From: a virus
Lineage: Duplodnaviria; Heunggongvirae; Uroviricota; Caudoviricetes
Length of the DNA stretch: 20,477 nt
Direction: 5' to 3' (one strand)
Virus record (IMG/VR): IMGVR_UViG_2703718852_000002
Span: 1-20,477 of that record
The translations under genes and the position numbers were made by a program. The notes under the pieces are model-generated. The model saw nothing but the letters and a program-made list of their open reading frames with translations. It did no database searches and had not been told where the DNA came from. Of this stretch, positions 1-17,857 are shown in pieces (positions within the stretch are counted from its first letter, which is position 1; the number at the start of each line of letters is the position of its first letter).

Positions 1-1053
1 TTACGGGGTAATGCCAACCGCTGCCGCCACTTTGTCGCCACTTGGCAGCGTTGCCAGAGGATTGAAACGGAGCGCCGTTTCCAGATGATCCGGTGCCAGA
101 TGTGCGTAACGCATAGTCATTTTTATATCGTGGTGTCCGAGAATTTTTTGTAAGGCCAGAATGTTTCCACCCGACATCATGAAGTGCGCCGCAAACGTAT
201 GGCGCAGAACGTGTGTGAGTTGACCGCGAGGGAGCACGATAGACGTTTTTTCCATCACGGATAAAAATTGAAAATAGCAGTCTGTGAAGAAATTGAACCC
301 ATCAAGCGCCATGATCTCTTCGTAAAGCTCTTTACTGATAGGGATGCTTCTGTTTTTCTTCCCCTTCGTTCTTACAAAGGTAATTCGGTATTTGGTCACC
401 TGTGAACGAGTAAGATTTACGGCTTCTCGCCAGCGTGCGCCTGTGCTTAAGCATATCTTAACTACCAGTGCCAGAATTGGGTCCTGACGTTTGCAATCAG
501 CCAGTAATTCAACAATCTGCTCATGGGTAAGCCATGCCATCTCTTTTTCTGCGATGGTGAATTTTCGCATGTTCTCCAGTGGGTTCGGATACGACCATTC
601 GCCCAGGCGGGATAGTTCGCTAAAAACACTACTTAGATAGCTTTGCTCCAGGTTAATGGTGACCGGGCTTGCTCCTTTCTTCCATTTCTCGCTGAAGTAG
701 ATCTCACCTGTCAGGCGTTTATCTCGATAGTGGGCAAACATTTTAGAGGTTAGATCAGTTGCAAGGGGATTGCCCAGAGCGTCAACCATCAGCAGCAATT
801 TGTCATAGACATGCTGCCCAGCAGTCAGTGATTTACCATGTAGTTTGAACCATAGCTCAACCACGTCTTTCAGTGTTCGACGATCCACTGATTCACCTAG
901 CCAGGGCTTTGCTTCGGTTTCTTCCATCGTGTGACGCTCAAAAGCCAGTGCTTCGCCTTTGGTGGCGAATTGTTTACGCACACGACGCCCACTACGTCCG
1001 GCGGGGTAACATTCGCAAAGCCATTTTCCTGTGGTGAGTTTTCGTACAGCCAT
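1..1053 (-). CDS. int: Tyrosine integrase, P2/186 family (350 aa)
   Basis: Starts MAVRKLTTGKWLCECYP at ATG 1053, with GGAGG 8 nt upstream on the minus strand. Carries tyrosine-recombinase motifs STGARWREA, HVLRHTFAAHF and GHHDIKMTMRYAHL. The track ORF extension to 1131 lacks an RBS. The stop codon is at 1-3. Confidence 0.9.
   Translation of the reverse strand: MAVRKLTTGKWLCECYPAGRSGRRVRKQFATKGEALAFERHTMEETEAKPWLGESVDRRTLKDVVELWFKLHGKSLTAGQHVYDKLLLMVDALGNPLATDLTSKMFAHYRDKRLTGEIYFSEKWKKGASPVTINLEQSYLSSVFSELSRLGEWSYPNPLENMRKFTIAEKEMAWLTHEQIVELLADCKRQDPILALVVKICLSTGARWREAVNLTRSQVTKYRITFVRTKGKKNRSIPISKELYEEIMALDGFNFFTDCYFQFLSVMEKTSIVLPRGQLTHVLRHTFAAHFMMSGGNILALQKILGHHDIKMTMRYAHLAPDHLETALRFNPLATLPSGDKVAAAVGITP
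19..41. repeat. Left copy of candidate att core (CGCTGCCGCCACTTTGTCGCCAC), inside the 3' end of int
   Basis: Matches 17623-17645 at 21 of 23 positions (C/T differences at repeat positions 12 and 23). Flanks on both sides are unrelated, as expected for attL/attR. Confidence 0.55.
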
Positions 1054-1241
1054 AAAAAATGCCCTCCAATAGAGAGCATTTTTACTGTATGTATAACCAG
1101 TGTCAATGTATGAAATCCTGCGACCATACATCTCACTGAAGCCATAATGAAGTAGGCTATTCTTTTTGCTATGTGATCATGTAACTTTTGCGGTTAACCT
1201 GTGGCTCATTTTTATTTTAGGCGCAGATATAAAAGCAAAAG

Positions 1242-3948: not shown

Positions 3949-4802
3949 GCACCATCCTGAAATGGGCGGGAAATAAAACTGCCATAATGTCCGAACTGAA
4001 AAAACATCTTCCTGCTGGCCCGCGACTGGTTGAACCTTTCGCGGGTTCCTGTGCTGTGATGATGGAGACGGATTATCCCAGCTATCTGGTTGCGGATATT
4101 AATCCTGATTTAATCAACCTCTATAAAAAGGTTGCCGCTGATTGTGAATCGTTTATATCTCGCGCCAGAGTTTTATTTGAGATCGCAAACAGGGAAGTGG
4201 CTTATTACAACATAAGGCAGGAGTTTAATTACTCAACTGAAATTACTGATTTCATGAAAGCGGTATATTTCCTGTATCTCAATCGTCACGGTTACCGTGG
4301 TTTATGTCGCTATAACAAGAGCGGGCATTTCAACATTCCCTACGGTAATTATAAAAATCCGTATTTCCCTGAAAAAGAAATTCGCGCATTTGCAGAAAAG
4401 GCCCAGCGAGCAACGTTTATCTGCGCCAGCTTTGATGAAACGCTGGCGATGTTGAAGGCGGGGGATGTGGTGTATTGCGATCCGCCGTATGACGGTACGT
4501 TTTCCGGCTATCACACTGACGGCTTCACTGAAGATGACCAGTATCACCTGGCATCTGTTCTTGAACATCGGTCATCAGAAGGACATCCGGTCATTGTTTC
4601 TAACAGTGACACATCCCTGATCCGTTCGCTGTATCGCAATTTTACTCACCACTACATCAAGGCAAAACGCAGCATCGGTGTGGCAGCTGGCGAGGGTAAA
4701 TCAGCAACAGAAATCATTGCTGTTTCCGGGCCGCGCTGCTGGGTGGGATTTGATTATTCGCGTGGCGTGGATAGTTCTGCCGTGTACGGAGTACGTGCAT
4801 GA
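3945..4802 (+). CDS. dam: DNA adenine methyltransferase, Dam/D12 class (285 aa)
   Basis: [20 protein letters not shown] (SAM-binding FxGxG) and YCDPPY catalytic motif. GGAGG before ATG 3945; ATGA overlaps with both neighbours. The track start at 3885 is an upstream extension. Confidence 0.9.
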
Positions 4803-7213
4803 GTCATGCCGATATGAACAACTGCTGCGGCTTTAACGAAGCTGCCGCATCGTTCTCATGGAACAGCTCGAAAAAGGCCATTAACCCTTATCTGGACCCG
4901 GTGGAAGTTGCGCCGGTTTCTACGCTTTCAAACCTGATCACTCTGTACGCTGCCGATAACGAGCAGGAACAGCTGCGCCGTGAGGCGCTGAGTGATCAGG
5001 TCTGGGAGCGTTATTTCTTTAATGAATCCCGTGATCCTGTCCAGCGCGAAATGGAACAGGATAAGCTCATTAGTCGGGCAAAGCTGGCGCATGAGCAGCA
5101 GCGTTTTAATCCGGATATGGTCATTCTGGCGGACGTCAACGCCCAGCCTTCCCATATCAGCAAGCCGCTGATGCAACGTATTGAATACTTCAGCAGCCTG
5201 GGCAGGCCAAAGGCTTATTCCCGCTATTTACGTGAGACGATTAAGCCATGTCTGGAACGACTGGAGCATGTACGCGACAGTCAGCTATCTGCATCTTTTC
5301 GCTTTATGGCAAGCCATGAAGGGCTGGACGGCCTGCTGATCCTGCCTGAAATGAGTCAGTTTCAGGTGAAACGCCTGTCCACCCTGGTAGCTGCGCATAT
5401 GAGTATGTGCCTTGATGCCGCTTGTGGCGATTTGTATGCCACCGATGACGTTAAGCCAGAAGAAATCCGCAATACATGGGAAAGGGTGGCAGCGGAAACC
5501 CTGCGTCTGGATGTCATCCCGCCTGCGTTTGAGCAACTCCGTCGGAAAAGAAACCGCCGTAAACCCGTGCCCTATGAACTCATTCCGGGTTCGCTGGCGC
5601 GTATGTTGTGCGCCGACTGGTGGTATCGGAAATTATGGAAGATGCGTTGCGAATGGCGGGAAGAGCAGTTGCGTGCTGTCTGCCTTGTCAGCAAAAAAGC
5701 ATCTCCCTATGTCAGCTATGAAGCCGTGTTGCATAAACGTGAGCAGCGCCGTAAGTCGCTGGAGTTTTTCCGTTCTCATGAACTGGTGAACGAAGACGGC
5801 GACACGCTGGACATGGAGGATGTGGTAAACGCCAGCAGCAGCAACCCTGCGCATCGCCGCAATGAGATGATGGCCTGTGTTAAAGGTCTGGAGCTTATCG
5901 CGGAAATGCGCGGTGACTGCGCCGTTTTCTACACCATCACCTGTCCGTCACGTTTCCATTCCACGCTAAATAACGGCAGGCCCAACCCGACCTGGACAAA
6001 TGCGACGGTAAGACAAAGCAGCGATTATCTGGTCGGTATGTTTGCTGCATTTCGTAAGGCGATGCACAAAGCCGGGTTGCGCTGGTATGGCGTGCGGGTG
6101 GCTGAGCCGCATCACGACGGCACAGTTCACTGGCACCTGTTGTGTTTCATGCGCAAAAAAGACCGCCGCGCCATTACAGCATTGTTGCGTAAGTTTGCTA
6201 TCCGTGAAGACCGCGAGGAGCTGGGCAATAACACGGGGCCGCGCTTTAAGTCTGAGCTGATTAACCCGCGCAAAGGAACGCCGACAAGCTACATAGCGAA
6301 ATACATCAGTAAGAACATTGACGGGCGTGGTCTGGCTGGCGAGATCAGCAAGGAAACGGGTAAATCTCTGCGTGATAACGCTGAATACGTGAATGCCTGG
6401 GCGTCTTTGCATCGTGTTCAGCAATTCCGCTTCTTTGGCATTCCGGGGCGTCAGGCTTACCGTGAACTGCGATTGCTGGCTGGTCAGGCGGCAAGGCAAA
6501 AGGGGGACAAAAAAGCAGGTGCGCCGGTACTGGATAACCCGCGCCTTGATGCCATCCTGGCTGCTGCTGATGCTGGTTGTTTTGCCACCTACATCATGAA
6601 GCAGGGCGGCGTACTGGTTCCCCGTAAATATCACCTCATCAGAACCGCTTATGAAATCAACGAAGAGCCGACCGCCTATGGCGATCACGGCATTCGTATT
6701 TATGGCATCTGGTCACCCATTGCAGAGGGCAAGATCTGCACTCATGCAGTGAAGTGGAAAATGGTTCGTAAAGCCGTTGACGTTCAGGAGGCGGCAGCCG
6801 ACCAGGGCGCTTGCGCCCCTTGGACTCGTGGCAATAACTGTCCCCTTGCTGAAAATTTGAACCAACAGGAGAAAGATAAATCAGCTGATGGGGACCCCAG
6901 AACGGACATTACCAGCATGGATGACAAGGAGTTGCACGATTACCTGCACAGTATGAGCAAAAAAGAGCGCCGGGAACTGGCAGCAAGGTTACGCCTGGTG
7001 AAACCGAAACGGCGTAAAGACTACAAACAGCGAATTACAGACCATCAGCGACTGCAGCTCGTGTATGAGCTGAAGTCCAGAGGATTTGATGGCAGCGAGA
7101 AAGAGGTCGATTTACTCCTTCGCGGAGGCAGTATTCCGTCAGGAGCAGGCCTGCGTATCTTCTATCGGAACCAGCGTTTGCAGGAAGATGATCAGTGGCG
7201 GAACCTGTATTAA
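4799..7213 (+). CDS. A: Replication initiation endonuclease gpA (rolling-circle Rep, 804 aa)
   Basis: HUH-type motif [10 protein letters not shown] and the two-tyrosine motif [10 protein letters not shown] typical of P2/186 A and phiX174-type initiators. Size and position match P2-family gene A. Confidence 0.9.
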
Positions 7214-7366: not shown

Positions 7367-7555
7367 ATGCAGGACTATTTTTTGGAGTCTTTGAAGCTCC
7401 AGCGCATTGATTTTTTTCTTAAGCTTGTAGCGGCTAGTGAGTGTAGTGATGAAGAGAAGGGGCTGGCTCTGCAGTGGGTTTCTGAATTGACTGATGAACT
7501 CATGGCAAAAATCAGAACCCACGAATACAACCGCTCAATGGATGTCATCAGCTGA
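7367..7555 (+). CDS. Small SOS-controlled protein, candidate Tum-like antirepressor (62 aa)
   Basis: AGGAGGAAAG-ATG at 7367, directly downstream of the LexA boxes. Same map position as the LexA-controlled tum of 186. Function is inferred from context only. Confidence 0.45.
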   Translation: MQDYFLESLKLQRIDFFLKLVAASECSDEEKGLALQWVSELTDELMAKIRTHEYNRSMDVIS

Positions 7556-7565
7556 GGTGACTTTT

Positions 7566-7799
7566 ATGCGCATTGAAATAATGATCGATAAAGAGCAGAA
7601 GATTAGCCAGTCTACCCTGGACGCCCTTGAATCCGAGCTTTACCGCAATCTGCGCCCCCTGTATCCCAAAACGGTAATTCGCATTCGCAAAGGTAGCTCT
7701 AACGGTGTGGAACTAACCGGACTGCAACTGGACGAAGAAAGAAAACAAGTGATGAAAATTATGCAGAAGGTGTGGGAAGACGACAGCTGGCTGCATTAA
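7566..7799 (+). CDS. DinI-like protein (77 aa)
   Basis: MRIEIMIDKEQ...LDALESELYRNL...QKVWEDDSWLH parallels E. coli DinI (MRIEVTI...IDALAGELSRR...QETWESADDW). GAGGTG RBS. Confidence 0.8.
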   Translation: MRIEIMIDKEQKISQSTLDALESELYRNLRPLYPKTVIRIRKGSSNGVELTGLQLDEERKQVMKIMQKVWEDDSWLH

Positions 7800-7958: not shown

Positions 7959-8003
7959 GCGTAGATCATGCAGGTGCATGAAAACCACTACATAAAGCGG
8001 GCA

Positions 8004-8022
8004 GGCGTGGCGGGGATACGAG
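8004..8022. other. cos: cos-like cohesive-end sequence GGCGTGGCGGGGATACGAG
   Basis: The first 13 nt are identical to the 186 cohesive end as I recall it (GGCGTGGCGGGGAAAGCAT; P2 is GGCGAGGCGGGGAAAGCAC). It lies between the replication module and the portal gene, as in P2/186. Confidence 0.5.
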
Positions 8023-8196
8023 CGCGCGCTGATAGGGTAATCGTCAAAACAGGCATCAGCTAGGTTGAGTTGTAGCGGTGCTTAAGTTTGCTCGTTGTTT
8101 GATAGAGCTTAATGTATGTAATTGCCTACAGCTGTGGTTATCTATTAACATGTAAGGATAAGGTCACTTGCTCGCTGCCATTAGAAGAGGAACTGG

Positions 8197-8667
8197 ATGT
8201 CTATCGAGGAAAAATTTTTTAGTGATATCGATTTAAAAGATCCGTTTTTTAACAGCCTAAGAGCTGATTATGAAGGATTTGATGTTTGGTTTCTCTCAAA
8301 AGGTAAAAATAAGGCGTTTGTATCACGTAATGAATTAGGTGAAATCGATGGTTTTCTCTATTTGAAAATAGAAGATGAAGAGTTGAGTGATATGACTCCA
8401 ACGTTTCCAAAGATGAAGCGAGTAAAGCTTGGCACATTTAAAATCGATGCTCATGGAACCAAACTTGGAGAGCGTTTTATTAGAATTATGTTTCAATTTG
8501 CTATGAGAAACAAACTAAAAGAAGTATATGTTACTATATTTGATAAGCATTCAGGATTAATTCGCTTATTAACTAAATATGGTTTTGTTTTAAAGGCGAG
8601 GAAAAATCTTTCTACGATTAATGGGCAAGAAGGTGTATACTTTAAAAACTTGGTATGGAAGGAGTAA
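8197..8667 (+). CDS. Cargo gene 1: GNAT-fold acetyltransferase-like protein (156 aa)
   Basis: AGAGGA RBS. The C-terminal half, FKIDAHGTKLGERFIRIMFQFAMRNKLKEVYVTIFDKHSGLIRLLTKYGFVLKA, fits the GNAT beta4-alpha3 / ...YxKxGF pattern. The existence of the ORF is more certain than its function. AT-rich. Confidence 0.6.
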   Translation: MSIEEKFFSDIDLKDPFFNSLRADYEGFDVWFLSKGKNKAFVSRNELGEIDGFLYLKIEDEELSDMTPTFPKMKRVKLGTFKIDAHGTKLGERFIRIMFQFAMRNKLKEVYVTIFDKHSGLIRLLTKYGFVLKARKNLSTINGQEGVYFKNLVWKE

Positions 8668-8670
8668 AAA

Positions 8671-9252
8671 ATGAGCTATGCTAATTATCCCTTAGTCAAA
8701 TTGCAGGGGAGAAATTATTTATTAAGTATTTATCCTGCATGGCATACACGTCTTTTCCCTGAGTCAAAACTCCACAATGAGAGTGCTGGTATCATCGCTG
8801 ATATATCACATACCAACAGTATTGAAAAAGTATACTTAACAAAAATGCATGGGGTAGCCAGCCTAAAGCCTGGAGATAATTTGCTTATTTATCGTACTTC
8901 AGATGGACAAGGTCCAGCTCGGTTTAGATCTGTTGCAACTTCAGTGTGTGTGGTTCAGGAAATTAAAGATATTCACGATTTCTTAACTTATGAGGAATTT
9001 AAGAATTACTGTGAACCTTATAGCGTTTTTGATGAAGATGAGTTACAGCTTCTATATATGAAAAAAAATTATCCGATAATTATACGGTTTACTTATAATT
9101 TCCCTTTGGAAAAAAGAGTTATTCGTGATGAAATCATGAATATTACAGGTTATACCAATAGTGATTATTGGGGTTTTTTACCACTAACTGATTCAGCATT
9201 TAAGCAGATTGTCTTACAGGGAGGTGTTGATGAAAGTTTTATTATCGATTAA
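8671..9252 (+). CDS. Cargo gene 2: unknown 193-aa protein, possibly a divergent PUA-like/ASCH-type beta-barrel
   Basis: AAGGAG RBS, start 4 nt after the gene 1 stop. The core LKPGDNLLIYRTSDGQGPARFRSVATSVCVVQEIKD resembles the strand-turn-strand core of ASCH/EVE-type folds. No catalytic motif was recognised with confidence. Confidence 0.45.
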   Translation: MSYANYPLVKLQGRNYLLSIYPAWHTRLFPESKLHNESAGIIADISHTNSIEKVYLTKMHGVASLKPGDNLLIYRTSDGQGPARFRSVATSVCVVQEIKDIHDFLTYEEFKNYCEPYSVFDEDELQLLYMKKNYPIIIRFTYNFPLEKRVIRDEIMNITGYTNSDYWGFLPLTDSAFKQIVLQGGVDESFIID

Positions 9253-9601
9253 GCCAGAGTATGCAGAGAGTATACTTTCTGGTAAAAAAAAATATGAGTT
9301 TCGGAAAAATATTTTTAGAAATAAAAATGTTGATACGATAGTTATTTACGCAACGATGCCGGTTGGCAAAGTAATAGGTGAATTTAAAGTAGGAGATATT
9401 CTTGCTCTATCCCCTTCAGAATTGTGGGATAAAACGAAAGCTCATGCAGGAATTACACATTCTTTTTTTAAAGATTATTTCCACCAAAGAGAAAAGGCTT
9501 TTGCTATTTCCATCAAAAGCCCTAAAAGATATAAATTCCCTGTCGACTTAAATGAGTTGATTCCCGGCGGCGTCGCCCCACAGTCTTATCGTTATTTATA
9601 A
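9230..9601 (+). CDS. Cargo gene 3: ASCH-domain protein (123 aa)
   Basis: GGAGGTG RBS; ATG 9230 overlaps the end of gene 2 by 23 nt. MKVLLSIKPEYAESILSGKKKYEFRKNIFRNKNVDTIVIYATMPVGKVIGEFKVGDIL...AFAISIKSPKRYKFPVDL is the classic stand-alone ASCH (COG4933-type) pattern. Confidence 0.75.
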   Translation: MKVLLSIKPEYAESILSGKKKYEFRKNIFRNKNVDTIVIYATMPVGKVIGEFKVGDILALSPSELWDKTKAHAGITHSFFKDYFHQREKAFAISIKSPKRYKFPVDLNELIPGGVAPQSYRYL

Positions 9602-10141
9602 TGTTGTCTGGGCATGTTTCTTAACCATGCCCAGTTTTTCTAGGGCAATAGATAAATCGTTTGTTGTTGGGGATTCTAAGATAATTAATGGTACATTGAT
9701 TTTATTTGTAACATATTTTGCGTTTTCTCTTTCAGCTTCCATCAGCTTATTTAAATCATAAGTAATATCACTCCCATCTCGTTTCATTATTCGTTCTCTA
9801 ATTGTATCGGGAGACTCCTCAACTAAAATTACTCCATCTAGCCCCATTTCCTCAAATACTTCTTGCTTGAGAACTTCAATATCTCCATTTTTATTTATTA
9901 AGGTAAAATGACCATCCAATAAAATATTGGATACCTTTAACTTTAATGCATTAAGTGCCGTAAGTAATATTGATTGGTTTTTATCAGGTGTGGCCGTTAA
10001 CTTACTGTTATCAAATTTAATATTAGAATTATTTTTTATAAGTTCGCTTGCGCTTACATGAGTTACCCCGAAATCATCTTTTGCAAATGAACACAAGTAA
10101 CCTTTGCCTACACCATGAACACCTGCTATGAAAATTAACAT
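9596..10141 (-). CDS. Cargo gene 4: P-loop NMP/adenylate-kinase-like protein (181 aa)
   Basis: GGAGGT RBS. Walker A IAGVHGVGKGY (a GKG-type loop as in adenylate kinases) and LLDGHF (compare ILDGFP of Adk). Convergent with gene 3; the 3' ends overlap by 6 nt. Confidence 0.65.
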   Translation of the reverse strand: MLIFIAGVHGVGKGYLCSFAKDDFGVTHVSASELIKNNSNIKFDNSKLTATPDKNQSILLTALNALKLKVSNILLDGHFTLINKNGDIEVLKQEVFEEMGLDGVILVEESPDTIRERIMKRDGSDITYDLNKLMEAERENAKYVTNKINVPLIILESPTTNDLSIALEKLGMVKKHAQTTL

Positions 10142-10166
10142 AGTATTACCTCCGTTTATTTATTTA

Positions 10167-10175
10167 TGTTAGAAT
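10167..10175 (+). promoter_or_regulatory. Extended -10 promoter candidate (TGTTAGAAT) for the ASCH-2/AbiC-like operon
   Basis: TGn-TAGAAT at 10167-10175, with a weak -35 (TTACCT, 18-nt spacer). Predicted TSS ~10182, 25 nt before ATG 10207. Confidence 0.4.
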
Positions 10176-10189
10176 GTTATAGCCTTAGC

Positions 10190-10218
10190 ATAGTAGAGGA
10201 TAGAGCATGAAGTTTCAA
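10190..10218 (-). promoter_or_regulatory. Promoter candidate for the kinase-like gene: TTGAAA-17 nt-TACTAT (minus strand)
   Basis: -35 at 10218-10213 and -10 at 10195-10190 on the minus strand, exact 17-nt spacer. Predicted TSS ~10183, about 42 nt before ATG 10141. Confidence 0.45.
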
Positions 10219-10584
10219 GCTATATCGATTTTGACTCCAGCGGTAGAAAATATTATAAATGGTTCTAAATCTATCGAAATACGGTCGTGGTATCCTGAAA
10301 CGATACCATTAAAAAACGTCATTCTTGTTCAGAATGATAAATATCTTAAAAATCAAAGCGATATAGATCATGGGGTGGCTATGGCTATTGTCGATTTTGT
10401 TTCAGTTAGAAATTGGTCATATGAGGATTACTTAAAACAAAACCAAGAAACAACTCTTAATAAGCCTTGGTCTCCAGGTTATTATGTGTGGGAAATTAAA
10501 AATGTTAGAATTTTAAAAAAATCTATTCCTTGTGTGGCGAGGAAAGGTATTTATACAATAGATTTAAATATGGATTATATATAA
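10207..10584 (+). CDS. Cargo gene 5: ASCH-domain protein (125 aa)
   Basis: GAGGA RBS. MKFQAISILTPAVENIINGSKSIEIRSWYPETIPLKNVILVQ fits the common ASCH opening (AxSIxQPWAxxIxxGxKxIEIRSW...). Confidence 0.7.
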   Translation: MKFQAISILTPAVENIINGSKSIEIRSWYPETIPLKNVILVQNDKYLKNQSDIDHGVAMAIVDFVSVRNWSYEDYLKQNQETTLNKPWSPGYYVWEIKNVRILKKSIPCVARKGIYTIDLNMDYI

Positions 10585-10595
10585 GGTATTGTGAG

Positions 10596-11387
10596 ATGTG
10601 TGGTGCCATTCTTCGAAATATTAAGCGTTATGCCATTATTTATTCACTGTTGTTTTTGGCTTTTATTTTAATGCTGATAGTGTTTGTTAGCTATGTTTGT
10701 AAATTTGGAGTGTATTCATGGAGTGATTCCGTAGAGAAATGGGGACAGTTTGGCGATTATATTGGTGGTGTACTGAATCCTGCTCTGGCCTTTATCTCTA
10801 TCATGCTTGTTTGTTTCACACTATATTCTACATCTAGGCAGTCATCTATTCAGTCATTCGAGTCTGTGTTATTTGAGTTACTAAGATTTCATAAAGATAA
10901 CTTATCAGAAATTAAAACAACGTATTCAGATGGAAAAGTGTATGTAGGACGGGAGGCTCTTTCATTATACATTACCGAAGTGAAGTTTAACCTACTTAAT
11001 ATTGTGGATGATTCACTTCCTTTGGATGAAAGGTTAGAGCTTTCAGTTAATATGGTTTATCTGGAAGGTGACAATTTTGCGAATGTGGGACATTATTTCA
11101 GGAATATTTACCATATTTTTAAACATATCAATGACTCTAACTATTTGACTGAGAAAGAAAAAACCAAGTATGCGAAATTAGTTAGAGCACAAATATCTTC
11201 TATAGAATCTGGCGCGATGCTATTAAATGGTTTTTCATCGGTAGGAAAGCCTGCCAAGAAATTTATTGAAAAATATTCTCTCCTTCAGGGGTTTAGTTTA
11301 AGTAAGGAATTCAAGCAGCAATTACATGATTTAGGTGCCTTAAAATTATACGATGACGTTGCTTATGAGGATAAAAAAGGGCATTAA
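10596..11387 (+). CDS. Cargo gene 6: two-TM membrane protein, AbiC-like putative abortive-infection effector (263 aa)
   Basis: Starts 11 nt after gene 5. Two N-terminal hydrophobic helices (AIIYSLLFLAFILMLIVFVSYV and VLNPALAFISIMLVCFTLY) flank WGQFGDYIGGVLNP, the signature I associate with the Pfam 'putative phage abortive infection protein' (putAbiC) family. The C-terminal region is soluble and helical. Confidence 0.6.
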   Translation: MCGAILRNIKRYAIIYSLLFLAFILMLIVFVSYVCKFGVYSWSDSVEKWGQFGDYIGGVLNPALAFISIMLVCFTLYSTSRQSSIQSFESVLFELLRFHKDNLSEIKTTYSDGKVYVGREALSLYITEVKFNLLNIVDDSLPLDERLELSVNMVYLEGDNFANVGHYFRNIYHIFKHINDSNYLTEKEKTKYAKLVRAQISSIESGAMLLNGFSSVGKPAKKFIEKYSLLQGFSLSKEFKQQLHDLGALKLYDDVAYEDKKGH

Positions 11388-11394
11388 ATGCCCT
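11378..11394. terminator. Bidirectional hairpin AGGGCAT-TAA-ATGCCCT at the cargo/portal boundary
   Basis: Perfect 7-bp stem. On the minus strand it is followed by TTTTTTA, so it serves as a Q terminator. The stop codons of gene 6 (11385-11387) and Q (11384-11386, minus strand) both sit in or beside the loop. Confidence 0.55.
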
Positions 11395-12220
11395 TATCTT
11401 GGTCAAGGATGTAGTCATTAAATGACACAATATTTTGATTTATCCAGGTGTTTAGCTCAACTAGTCTTTTCTGCAAAGGAACCAACTCATTTCTGACAAA
11501 AACCTTCGCGGCTTTTTCCACATCCCCAAACCCTCCAACATTATTAGGCATAATCCCCATCATTTGCGGCGGCACGCGGTGCGCAGCCATCATGTCATCA
11601 CGGCTCACGTTCTTGATATTCAGAAACTCATCCTTCGCCGCAACTTCTGACAATGGGATAATCTGAAGCCCGTCCTTTTTGCCGTTAGGCGAGTACATAA
11701 ACAGGTTGCGGAAGTTGCCCGGACCTTTGGCGCTTTTCATCGCATTGCGGAGGTTGTTCACATCTTCCTGGTTCTGCGCGGCATCGGTCATGTACATGAT
11801 GAAGCCTGCATGACTGCCGTTAATGTAATACTTCCGGCGGAACAGCGTGGCGGACTCGTTGAGCAGGGCTGACGGAATGGCAGAAAGATAACCTGGCAGG
11901 CCGTAGATCTCCTGGTTGATGTCCGGTTCCATCAGATGAAAAATGCTGCCTTTCGTGAACTGATACGGCTGGGTTGTCATACCGTATTGCACAAACCAGT
12001 AGGTATCCAGGTCTAACCCGCGTCGGGTATATTTTGCCAGAGCAGGCTCAAGGGCGATAACTTCACCGAAGCGGTTCGTGCGTTTCTCCAGGTAGGCGTT
12101 ACCAAATACCAGATAGTCCTGCACAAAACGTGAAAAAGCCTGCTGGCTGAGCAGCGGGTGAGGGATGTAGGTACTGGTCAGAATGTTGCATTTTACTGCA
12201 ATCGGTGACCGGAAGCAGAG
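11384..12220 (-). pseudogene. Q: Portal protein gpQ, 5'-truncated (C-terminal ~275 codons retained)
   Basis: SPIAVKCNILTSTYIPHPLLSQQAFSRF...LNESATLFRRKYYINGSHAGFIMY...VFVRNELVPLQ matches P2 gpQ from about residue 70 onward. Upstream of ~12210 the minus-strand frame reads antisense to the J remnant (track ORF to 12337). Confidence 0.85.
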
Positions 12221-12439
12221 CCGGTAATGGCAGCGGCAAAAGCCAGTCTGCAGAAGTACATTGCCAGCCAGACGAGGCTTGGTCGGGATATTCGCCGTAG
12301 CGCCATCTTTGCTGCTCTGCATGTTGAGGGTGTTCAACGTGTGGAACTGGCTTCTCCGCTGGCGGATGTGGTCCTGAACAAAACACAGGCGGCATCATGT
12401 ACGCAGTGGAGCGTAACCAACGGAGGAACGGATGAATAG
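12209..12439 (+). pseudogene. J: Baseplate protein gpJ, 3' remnant (~75 codons)
   Basis: ...RLGRDIRRSAIFAALHVEGVQRVELASPLADVVL...GGTDE is a P2 gpJ C-terminus. An in-frame stop at 12206-12208 lies just upstream. The remnant is immediately followed by, and overlaps, gene I as in P2. Confidence 0.75.
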
Positions 12440-13037
12440 TCTGCTGCCACCGGGTTCAACTTCACTGGAGCGCCGACTGGCGCAAACCTGTAGCGGGATT
12501 TCTGATTTGCAGGTGCCGCTGCGTGACTTGTGGAATCCGGCTACCTGTCCGGTCAGCTTCCTGCCTTATCTCGCCTGGGCGTTCTCTGTGGATCGCTGGG
12601 ACGAGGGCTGGACAGAAAGCGTCAAACGCCAGGTAGTGAAGGATGCTTTTTATATTCATCAGCATAAAGGAACCACCAGTGCCGTGCGGCGGGTGGTGGA
12701 ACCGTTCGGATTCCTGATCCGCATTATTGAGTGGTGGCAGACCGGAGAAACACCGGGCACGTTTCGCCTGGATATCGGCGTGCAGGACCAGGGCATCACT
12801 GAAGATACCTATCTGGAACTTGAGCGACTGATAAGCGATGCCAAACCATGTAGCCGCCACATGATCGGCATGTCCATCAATCTGCAGACCAGCGGCCCGC
12901 ATTGGGTGGGAGCCGCCAGCTATCTTGGCGAAGAAATCACGATCTATCCGTATATCAACGAAACGATTATTTCCGGTGGCACCGCGCATGAAGGCGGGGC
13001 GGTCCATGTTATTGACACAATGAGAGTGAATCCATGA
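12432..13037 (+). CDS. I: Baseplate/tail protein gpI (201 aa)
   Basis: GGAGGA RBS. MNSLLPPGSTSLERRLAQ...FLPYLAWAFSVDRWDEGW is typical of P2 gpI. Coupled to H (ATGA). Confidence 0.85.
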   Translation: MNSLLPPGSTSLERRLAQTCSGISDLQVPLRDLWNPATCPVSFLPYLAWAFSVDRWDEGWTESVKRQVVKDAFYIHQHKGTTSAVRRVVEPFGFLIRIIEWWQTGETPGTFRLDIGVQDQGITEDTYLELERLISDAKPCSRHMIGMSINLQTSGPHWVGAASYLGEEITIYPYINETIISGGTAHEGGAVHVIDTMRVNP

Positions 13038-17645: not shown

Positions 17646-17701
17646 CGTTAAAAAACAGTGTTTCTAACATCATGATTTTAAACAGCTTAAATTTCAGGCA
17701 A

Positions 17702-17746
17702 CAAAAAACCCATCAACCTTGAACCGAAATGGCGGGGTTGATGGGC
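17702..17746 (-). terminator. Rho-independent terminator downstream of ybjL
   Basis: CCCATCAACC...GGTTGATGGG stem (10 bp, 17-nt loop), followed on the minus strand by TTTTTTGT. About 110 nt after the ybjL stop. Confidence 0.5.
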
Positions 17747-17857
17747 TCCACAAAATGGGGACATCAAAGAAAAGCAGTGGCACTAATTAAGACTGATGCC
17801 CTGCGGAAAAGTTCTGCGGTTGTGCAAAAAAATTTCATTTTCAGGGCAACTTCAGTT

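Follow-up and report, generated by a model that had tools for sequence, protein, structure and literature searches.

We analysed a 20,477-nucleotide (nt) stretch of DNA, IMG/VR virus record IMGVR_UViG_2703718852_000002 (hereafter the window, meaning this whole stretch), a P2-like prophage of E. coli in which two adjacent genes on the plus strand, g5 and g6, encode an ASCH-fold protein (ASCH2) and a predicted inner-membrane protein of the putAbiC family. A preliminary description had taken the two for a possible dedicated two-gene variant of the single-gene AbiC-like family, in which a nucleic-acid-binding ASCH protein gates a membrane effector. Our analysis points to a larger unit: with a probability of roughly 0.85, g5 and g6, rather than being a stand-alone pair, form the distal end of a candidate phage-defence cassette of six genes, with the order GNAT, EVE-like, ASCH1, AAA_17 kinase (on the minus strand), ASCH2 (g5) and putAbiC (g6).

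The g5 gene (10207-10584, plus strand, with a TAA stop codon at 10582-10584) encodes a protein of 125 amino acids (aa). Its assignment as an ASCH protein holds for the predicted fold and for the signature motif, but not at the Pfam threshold, as the Pfam ASCH model (PF04266) gives g5 19.5 bits (E-value 1.7e-3) against a cut-off of 21.2 bits. Distant relatives retrieved with a g5 profile exceed this cut-off (for example, P0230 with 38.1 bits and P0268 with 35.9 bits), and g5 itself matches phrog_3193 at 1.7e-33. The AlphaFold2 (AF2) model of g5 has a predicted local distance difference test score (pLDDT) of 84.5, and its top 14 Foldseek matches in the PDB are all ASCH structures, with probabilities of 0.97-1.0; fold matches include EOLA1/CXorf40A, the ASCH domain of TRIP4 and ZmASCH. 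On the basis of this model, g5 is an ASCH-fold protein with a PUA-like beta-barrel. The GxKxxExR motif, present as G19-S-K21-S-I-E24-I-R26, is invariant in the g5 family, and the residues found to be invariant in alignments include K21, E24, R26, W28, Y92, W95, N99 and R101, with an overall identity of 44-100% among cassette copies. A search of NCBIfam returned a family for neither g5 nor g6, and a g5 profile compared with PDB chain sequences gave no real match. An origin of g5 as a recent duplicate of ASCH1 was considered and rejected, there being no detectable sequence similarity between the two.

A profile search with g5 yielded 210 representatives at E-values up to 1e-3. Domains similar to g5 are found fused to GNAT acetyltransferases (five cases), to a cytidine/deoxycytidine monophosphate (dCMP) deaminase and to an NTP_transf_6 nucleotidyltransferase; proteins with such fused distant ASCH domains are P0225, P0227, P0233, P0258, P0268, P0249 and P0222. 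Outside cassettes, g5-like ASCH genes (35-45% identity) adjoin either a HAD hydrolase gene together with NUDIX and methyltransferase genes, or a GNAT gene, and one such ASCH gene is a lone prophage gene. Stand-alone relatives beside HAD phosphatase and NUDIX genes were seen on contigs L257 and L300. These fusions and neighbours hint at nucleoside- or nucleotide-level substrates for g5-like proteins. None of the cassette-free g5-like ASCH proteins examined has a homologue of putAbiC, or of the SLATT family of membrane proteins, encoded downstream.

The intergenic region between g5 and the divergently oriented kinase gene (10142-10206) contains predicted promoter features, namely an extended -10-like box, TGTTAGAAT, at 10167-10175, which is semi-conserved as TGnTAnAAT in an alignment of nine lineages, and a g5 Shine-Dalgarno sequence (AGAGGA) at 10195-10200. 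A promoter-like site for the kinase on the minus strand (10218-10190) came from a consensus scan for promoters and terminators, which returned no more sites here than expected by chance.

The g6 gene (10596-11387, plus strand, 263 aa) begins with an ATG at 10596, in frame with the open reading frame (ORF) 10530-11387. It lies 11 nt past the g5 stop codon, confirming the spacing and common strand reported for the two genes. Its identification as an AbiC-like protein with two transmembrane (TM) segments was likewise borne out, as g6 has two hydrophobic segments and matches Pfam putAbiC (PF16872) with 68.1 bits, against a cut-off of 22 (E-value 9.9e-19), and phrog_8999 at 1.7e-84. Weak matches were obtained to the PADLOC models of AbiC (E-value 9.4e-6, 23.4 bits, partial, profile positions 157-232 of 306) and AbiP (E-value 2.8e-4). 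The putAbiC core defined by the Pfam scan and the family alignment comprises residues 163-231 (11082-11288), and the residues conserved across the family are G165-H-Y-F-R169-N170, Y172, Y192, R197, Q199, S201, E204 and N211.

Hydropathy, charge and the AF2 model (pLDDT 79.7) place an N-terminal two-TM hairpin at 10632-10829, with TM1 at residues ~13-37 and TM2 at ~56-78; in the model, a TM helix (13-37) is followed by a long helix (46-103). The segment WGQFGDYIGGVLNP (residues 49-62) opens this second helix and forms an interfacial motif, W49-GQFGDYIGGVLN-P62 (nt 10740-10781), whose residues 49-58 read as [FW]GxFGD[YF]xGG within the hairpin. This TM-motif-TM arrangement had been proposed as the hallmark of the family. 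The motif was indeed found to be a family signature, with G[DN]xxGG present within the first 160 residues of 147 of the 179 putAbiC proteins retrieved and with G53, D54, G57 and G58 conserved at 85-96% in 152 diverse members, frequencies that may be inflated by a retrieval that partly used motif-containing words; the Pfam match itself is C-terminal, and WGQFGDYIGGVLNP lies outside the Pfam putAbiC model.

Given the positive charges at its extreme N-terminus, g6 is predicted to lie N-in in the membrane, with the C-terminus likewise inside. The soluble putAbiC domain is almost certainly cytoplasmic, judging from homologues in which it is fused, with no intervening hydrophobic segment, to a kinase that needs cytosolic ATP. 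Polar residues conserved among the 152 members (D54, Q86, E89, H166, R169, N170, Q199, S201, E204 and N211) indicate that the domain does more than anchor the protein passively. The conserved GHYFRNxYH stretch of g6 was also considered as a HEPN-like Rx4-6H motif and rejected on spacing, with 3 residues between R169 and H173 and 7 between R169 and H177. Comparison of g6 with the SLATT Pfam models gave no match.

Gene content of the cassette

All relatives of g6 with enough flanking sequence (42-100% identical to it) lie in loci in which all six genes are identically ordered and oriented. This synteny extends over genomes of Escherichia, Kosakonia, Providencia, Erwinia and Serratia, ~20 IMG/VR contigs and 4 metagenome contigs, and protein matches also named Salmonella, Yersinia and other Enterobacterales. 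Conserved at the protein level and syntenic, g5 and g6 are real genes, and the synteny across g6-clade loci identifies the six-gene cassette, rather than the pair, as the unit of inheritance. Scans of genomes, viral contigs and metagenomes revealed no g6-clade gene outside the cassette. Within the g6 clade, the adjacency of the two genes proved conserved, with g5 directly upstream in 20 of 22 lineages. A dedicated two-gene variant of AbiC is at odds with these data, since the pair always occurs in the six-gene cassette and never alone. Taken with the kinase fusions described below, the synteny marks g5 and g6 as co-inherited components and not as chance neighbours.

Across the wider putAbiC family the picture differs. 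In a genome scan covering the best 80 of 237 confirmed putAbiC loci across bacteria, 69 upstream neighbours fell into 79 Pfam families and ASCH was found in 2 of the 69, so that an ASCH partner is not a property of the putAbiC family as such. The expectation that an ASCH gene precedes homologues of g6 therefore holds for the g6 clade and not for the family at large.

A census from the other end of the cassette covered 80 GNAT-EVE/ASCH1 loci in viral contigs. The core alone (GNAT-EVE and ASCH1) was found in 40 of these, the core with the kinase in 12, the core with the divergent kinase and ASCH2, the portal gene coming directly next, in 8, and the full six-gene cassette in 16; in two loci (L193 and L194) putAbiC stands right after ASCH1, with neither kinase nor ASCH2, and one locus ends at a contig end. 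GNAT-EVE and ASCH1 thus make up the core, to which the kinase, ASCH2 and two-TM genes are added as accessories, each with its own pattern of presence and absence.

Among 30 distinct cassette ASCH2 proteins from all collections (for one of which the contig ends too early upstream for GNAT-EVE to be confirmed), the divergent kinase adjoins ASCH2 in every case (30/30), and the gene that follows ASCH2 is putAbiC in 20, SLATT_5 in 1 and missing in 9. The fixed partner of ASCH2 is the divergent kinase, not putAbiC, and the most dispensable part of the cassette is the two-TM gene. The SLATT_5 case (L258/L259, one lineage on two contigs) comes from a lambdoid prophage setting, with cassette proteins that share 38-63% identity with their counterparts in the window and a SLATT_5 gene (Pfam, 3.3e-33) that begins 8 nt past ASCH2. 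Seen from the membrane gene, the gene immediately upstream of a GNAT-EVE-linked putAbiC is an ASCH gene in every examined case: ASCH2 in the P2-type cassettes, and ASCH1 in L193, L194 and the eight lineages with a fused or adjacent kinase. An obligatory co-occurrence of g5 and g6 is contradicted from both sides, by g5 occurring without g6 in 9 lineages and by g6-type genes without g5 in two P2-type loci and in all eight examined lineages (8/8) with a fused or adjacent kinase.

Fusion ties putAbiC directly to the kinase. In L051, a metagenome-assembled genome (MAG) of Bacteroidales, a single ORF of 432 aa combines putAbiC (residues 162-233) with AAA_17 (267-388); ahead of it lie a GNAT-EVE fusion gene (355 aa) and an ASCH1 gene. 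The putAbiC::AAA_17 fusion family comprises ~78 protein clusters (420-450 aa, 34-99% identity), which are mostly metagenomic, with one genome copy, in a Bacteroidales MAG; the two-TM hairpin is retained in the fusions. All seven fusion lineages that were read (7/7) have an operon of GNAT-EVE (~350 aa), ASCH1 and putAbiC::kinase in otherwise unrelated contexts, including polysaccharide loci, phage regions and a locus beside KwaA, and in an eighth lineage (L255) this order is kept but the kinase is a gene of its own, 3 nt past putAbiC. In a second type of fusion, which ties the kinase to the core system, an ASCH1-type (GevA-like) domain is N-terminal to the AAA_17 kinase (~320-330 aa; P0160, P0163, P0165 and P0168). 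Defence-type genes were observed beside fusion cassettes, namely a C-5 cytosine DNA methylase gene (L051, 7375-8673) and a homologue of KwaA of the Kiwa system (L253, 898-1491).

By BLAST score ranks, the putAbiC proteins of the enterobacterial cassettes find their closest matches among stand-alone copies of Proteobacteria and other phyla, and those of the fusion type find theirs mostly among stand-alone Bacteroidota copies. This ranking suggests that putAbiC was recruited into GNAT-EVE operons at least twice; two independent recruitments would argue for functional synergy.

Upstream of g5, the window carries the core genes of a GNAT-EVE system with the ASCH gene immediately downstream, in the form of two ORFs that together match PDC-M11A and a third that matches PDC-M11B. 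The GNAT-like acetyltransferase of the 'GevT' type (8197-8667, plus strand) is a separate ORF that corresponds to the N-terminal half of PADLOC PDC-M11A (E-value 1.1e-58, profile positions 11-160 of 357), matches phrog_13728 'acetyltransferase' (E-value 3.9e-52) and is syntenic across all cassette loci. The EVE-like protein of the PUA superfamily (8671-9252, plus strand) corresponds to the C-terminal half of PDC-M11A (E-value 5.9e-69, profile positions 166-357 of 357). Its EVE label rests on the literature (PMC7641849) and on a weak Pfam EVE match, below the cut-off (1.8e-3), of one homologue, the fused protein of L051; a profile of the EVE-like protein gave no real match among PDB sequences. 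ASCH1 (9230-9601, plus strand), the PDC-M11B or 'GevA'-type ASCH partner of GNAT-EVE, matches Pfam ASCH (E-value 5.3e-9, 37.1 bits) and PADLOC PDC-M11B (E-value 1.7e-49), and its homologue in phage PhiR47_2 carries the annotation of a GevA antitoxin.

The junction between the GNAT and EVE-like ORFs (8665-8673) reads TAA, AAA, ATG in frame, with GGAG just upstream. Every P2-type cassette keeps the split, L005 with overlapping GNAT and EVE-like ORFs in different frames; a single fused GNAT-EVE protein is encoded in SopEPhi, in PhiR47_2 and in the lineages whose kinase is joined to putAbiC or comes directly after it. A nonsense mutation as the cause of the split was rejected, given its conservation in the clade, the Shine-Dalgarno sequence before the EVE-like ORF and the overlapping frames in L005.

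The AAA_17 P-loop kinase (9596-10141, minus strand, divergent from g5; Pfam AAA_17 E-value 3.1e-18) is nucleoside-monophosphate (NMP)-kinase-like, its closest solved relatives being adenylate kinase 1 and UMP/CMP kinase (E-value ~4e-6). The divergent kinase seems to be disrupted in some cassettes in which ASCH2 and the remaining genes are intact: in Kosakonia (L002/L092, ~4996-5492) it appears as two tblastn pieces in different frames with only a 51-aa ORF, and in L293 (3395-3912) it is broken into ORFs of 74 and 98 aa. The same AAA_17 kinase is also found at the C-terminus of a 415-aa protein (P0164; L256, 4001-5248) whose unrelated N-terminal region of ~240 aa has no Pfam match; its gene adjoins an HNH_5 gene and a serine recombinase gene, with no GNAT-EVE nearby.

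The prophage begins with an integrase gene (1-1131, minus strand) and contains CI and CII-type regulators, a replication endonuclease A gene (4799-7213) and a DinI-like gene (7494-7799). The cassette forms a cargo island (~8000-11400) between these replication endonuclease and DinI genes and portal gene Q, which follows on the minus strand, and has a G+C content of ~33%, compared with ~50-55% for most flanking prophage genes. For P2, a defence hotspot has been documented at this site, flanked by the replication endonuclease and portal genes (PMC9519451; PMC9122126). Of 5,426 complete E. coli genomes, only 8 carry the exact cassette (99.6-99.9% identity), in each case on the chromosome. At its downstream edge, the convergent 3' ends of g6 and the portal gene overlap at 11384-11387, and a terminator-like hairpin with a T-run lies there on the minus strand (11377-11395).

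Compared with an intact relative (NZ_CP116923), the prophage has lost ~10.4 kb (L001, 14710-25075), from the 5' end of portal gene Q through the terminase, capsid, lysis and tail-completion genes into baseplate gene J. The deletion junction, with a 20-bp sequence overlap, is at 12189-12208 of the window and affects 11384-13037. By this loss the prophage is defective, yet it has kept its defence cargo. The sole match of an Rfam search was the RybB small RNA (RF00110, 105 bits; 17700-17778, minus strand), far from g5 and g6, in the host chromosome just past the prophage end. In Salmonella phage SopEPhi (L083, 5208-6756), the P2 hotspot likewise holds GNAT-EVE and ASCH1, followed by phosphoribosyltransferase-like and DprA/SLOG-like genes in place of the kinase, ASCH2 and putAbiC; these may be another accessory arm or a separate system.

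Possible roles of the two-TM gene

The explanation of the whole locus that we prefer, and that we put at about even odds, is that g6 is an optional and exchangeable membrane arm of the GNAT-EVE system and not part of an autonomous pair. In such a system, g6 would sit N-in in the inner membrane, with a two-TM hairpin that contains GDxxGG and a cytoplasmic all-alpha putAbiC domain that works physically with the NMP-kinase-like protein. The upstream ASCH protein would read a nucleic-acid or nucleotide state that is made or guarded by the GNAT/kinase part and would then control the membrane protein, coupling the GNAT/kinase chemistry to it. The membrane protein would be an optional, exchangeable output, most likely an abortive stop of the infected cell at the membrane. 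A real link from ASCH to the membrane is favoured by the constant presence of an ASCH gene upstream of GNAT-EVE-linked putAbiC and by a slot that can also hold SLATT_5, a replacement in keeping with a membrane effector. The step to an ASCH-controlled membrane effector, taken by itself, is more tentative, and we rate its chances as somewhat below even.

Several points weigh against this explanation. We infer toxicity, defence, membrane action and ASCH-to-membrane signalling of the cassette from sequence, and fold searches with the putAbiC domain returned nothing functionally informative. From their predicted upstream elements, g5 and g6 appear to have a promoter of their own, which is compatible with separate regulation. 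Stand-alone putAbiC and the lactococcal AbiC and AbiP are single genes, so that g6 could be autonomous and merely stacked beside GNAT-EVE. The nine lineages that have ASCH2 and lack a two-TM gene indicate that the primary role of ASCH2 is not membrane gating, and the fusions, which join putAbiC to the kinase and not to ASCH, equally fit putAbiC as an anchor or sensor for the kinase. The SLATT_5 swap, finally, is a single lineage on two contigs.

The first alternative takes up the single-gene habit of the family: g6 would be an autonomous Abi (abortive infection) protein like AbiC or AbiP, stacked in a crowded hotspot, and g5 would belong to the kinase module and be unrelated to g6. The overwhelmingly single-gene putAbiC family, with its heterogeneous neighbours, is what this alternative predicts, as is the existence of lactococcal AbiC and AbiP as separate single-protein systems (PMC13064643); it also agrees with the gain and loss of g6 independently of g5 and with a g5 that always accompanies the kinase. 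It leaves unexplained the recurrent putAbiC-AAA_17 fusion in GNAT-EVE operons in all seven lineages, with putAbiC directly upstream of the kinase in the eighth, the confinement of the g6 clade to the cassette in all scans, and an association that seems to have arisen at least twice, and we consider it unlikely.

Next comes an alternative in which putAbiC would serve as a membrane anchor or sensor, bringing the kinase and GNAT-EVE to the inner membrane, where phage DNA enters, and in which the GNAT toxin would execute the arrest. The fusions speak for it in joining specifically putAbiC and the kinase with the hairpin retained, as do the conserved polar residues, which suggest a ligand-binding or catalytic site over a simple pore, and the nucleic-acid binding by the soluble domain of AbiP. 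However, the replacement of putAbiC by SLATT_5, a predicted two-TM effector family, argues for an effector slot, and the kinase of the E. coli cassette is a separate gene on the opposite strand; the anchor or sensor function is thus, in our judgement, slightly harder still to credit.

The preliminary description corresponds to a third alternative, a self-contained two-gene system in which ASCH senses phage nucleic acid and gates the putAbiC effector, the neighbouring genes being irrelevant. The 11-nt gap on one strand, the plausible promoter, an adjacency kept in 20 lineages and the ability of SLATT_5 to replace the two-TM gene behind ASCH2 would all fit such a system. Yet the pair never occurs without the GNAT, EVE-like, ASCH1 and kinase genes, its members part in both directions (9 lineages have ASCH2 but no putAbiC, and L193, L194 and all fusion lineages have putAbiC but no ASCH2), and the cassette-free g5-like ASCH proteins lack a two-TM neighbour, which together make it improbable. 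A toxin-antitoxin pair, with g6 as membrane toxin and g5 as antitoxin, would suit the small upstream gene, the tight spacing and the mobile-element context, but the occurrence of g6-type genes without g5, and of g5 without g6 in 9 lineages, is unexpected for an obligatory pair and makes this the least credible of the alternatives by far.

We also considered a more specific chemistry, in which the ASCH and two-TM proteins form the ligand-gated membrane output of a base- or nucleotide-acetylation pathway. On infection, the GNAT-EVE enzyme and the NMP-kinase-like protein would make or expose an acetylated nucleic acid or nucleotide, which the ASCH proteins would read or erase, and the bound state would open or activate the exchangeable two-TM effector, be it putAbiC or SLATT_5. 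This version is speculative and we think it a long shot; if true, it would provide a first mechanism for the AbiC/AbiP family and a new kind of phage-defence signal.

Relation to known systems

Both gene families, and the association of GNAT-EVE with ASCH and AAA_17, are already known. In the literature searched, with Iyer et al. 2013 and any GevAT paper outside its scope, we found no account of the recurrent attachment of putAbiC, of a second ASCH gene with an inverted kinase or of the SLATT_5 alternative. Searches for the extended cassette under GevA/GevT, putAbiC, PDC-M11 and GNAT-EVE returned none (Iyer et al. 2013 again lying outside the scope), nor did a search find the paper behind the GevA/GevT name. 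Rousset 2022 and Vassallo 2022 make no mention of ASCH, GNAT or AbiC, and our literature search found no paper testing the GNAT-EVE/ASCH systems, a widespread prophage cargo.

The putAbiC-AAA_17 fusion, the constant upstream ASCH gene and the SLATT replacement tie two puzzles together, that of AbiC and AbiP, which date from the 1990s-2000s, and that of the GNAT-EVE systems, and make them jointly testable. For annotation, the locus would be described as one modular cassette with an optional membrane arm, and not as 'PDC-M11' beside an unrelated 'putative abortive infection protein'.

The RexA/RexB system of lambda consists of a prophage-encoded cytoplasmic sensor and a membrane channel, and is proposed to abort infection at the membrane. 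It offers an analogy only: both loci encode a small soluble protein and a polytopic membrane protein in a prophage, but the proteins are not homologous, and Rex is a self-contained two-gene system, which g5-g6 is not. The two-TM effectors of the SLATT group (SLATT_5, PF18160), which belong to CBASS-like conflict systems, occupy the slot of g6 in a homologous cassette and are likewise short proteins with two hydrophobic helices; they differ in having no sequence relationship to g6, and no SMODS or SLOG partner is present here.

Among ASCH proteins, E. coli YqfB is an ASCH-fold N4-acetylcytidine amidohydrolase (cited in PMC12707154). Shared fold is the likeness to g5, and as a suggestive precedent YqfB shows that an ASCH protein can reverse base acetylation, which is of relevance beside a GNAT; in contrast, g5 has no sequence-level PDB match, and YqfB is not among its top fold matches.

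The lactococcal AbiC and AbiP are membrane-anchored Abi proteins whose mechanism is still unexplained, and AbiP, a further suggestive precedent, binds RNA in preference to single-stranded DNA (PMC13064643). They resemble g6 in their N-terminal TM anchor (with two helices, as in AbiC) and all-alpha soluble domain, but are single-protein systems of Gram-positive bacteria, whereas g6 is a distant relative in a multigene cassette.

The closest comparison is with the GNAT-EVE/ASCH/(AAA_17) systems, the PADLOC candidate PDC-M11, which were reportedly also predicted by Iyer et al. 2013. According to a 2020 survey, an ASCH gene is almost invariably part of (PIN)-GNAT-EVE operons and an AAA_17 ATPase gene frequently so; prophages of beta- and gamma-proteobacteria commonly carry GNAT-EVE, toxin-antitoxin-like behaviour was predicted, and the modules were experimentally uncharacterised at that time (Bell, Wolf and Koonin 2020, PMC7641849). 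That survey does not describe the addition of ASCH2 or putAbiC, and the terms abortive, AbiC and transmembrane are absent from it. The GenBank record of Escherichia phage PhiR47_2 (PV340567) labels its homologous pair GevT toxin and GevA antitoxin. The window resembles these systems in the strong PDC-M11A and PDC-M11B matches and the frequent AAA_17 accessory between 8197 and 10141, and in its location in a prophage of a gamma-proteobacterium; it differs from them in that GNAT and EVE are separate ORFs, the kinase is inverted, and ASCH2 and a two-TM putAbiC gene have been appended.

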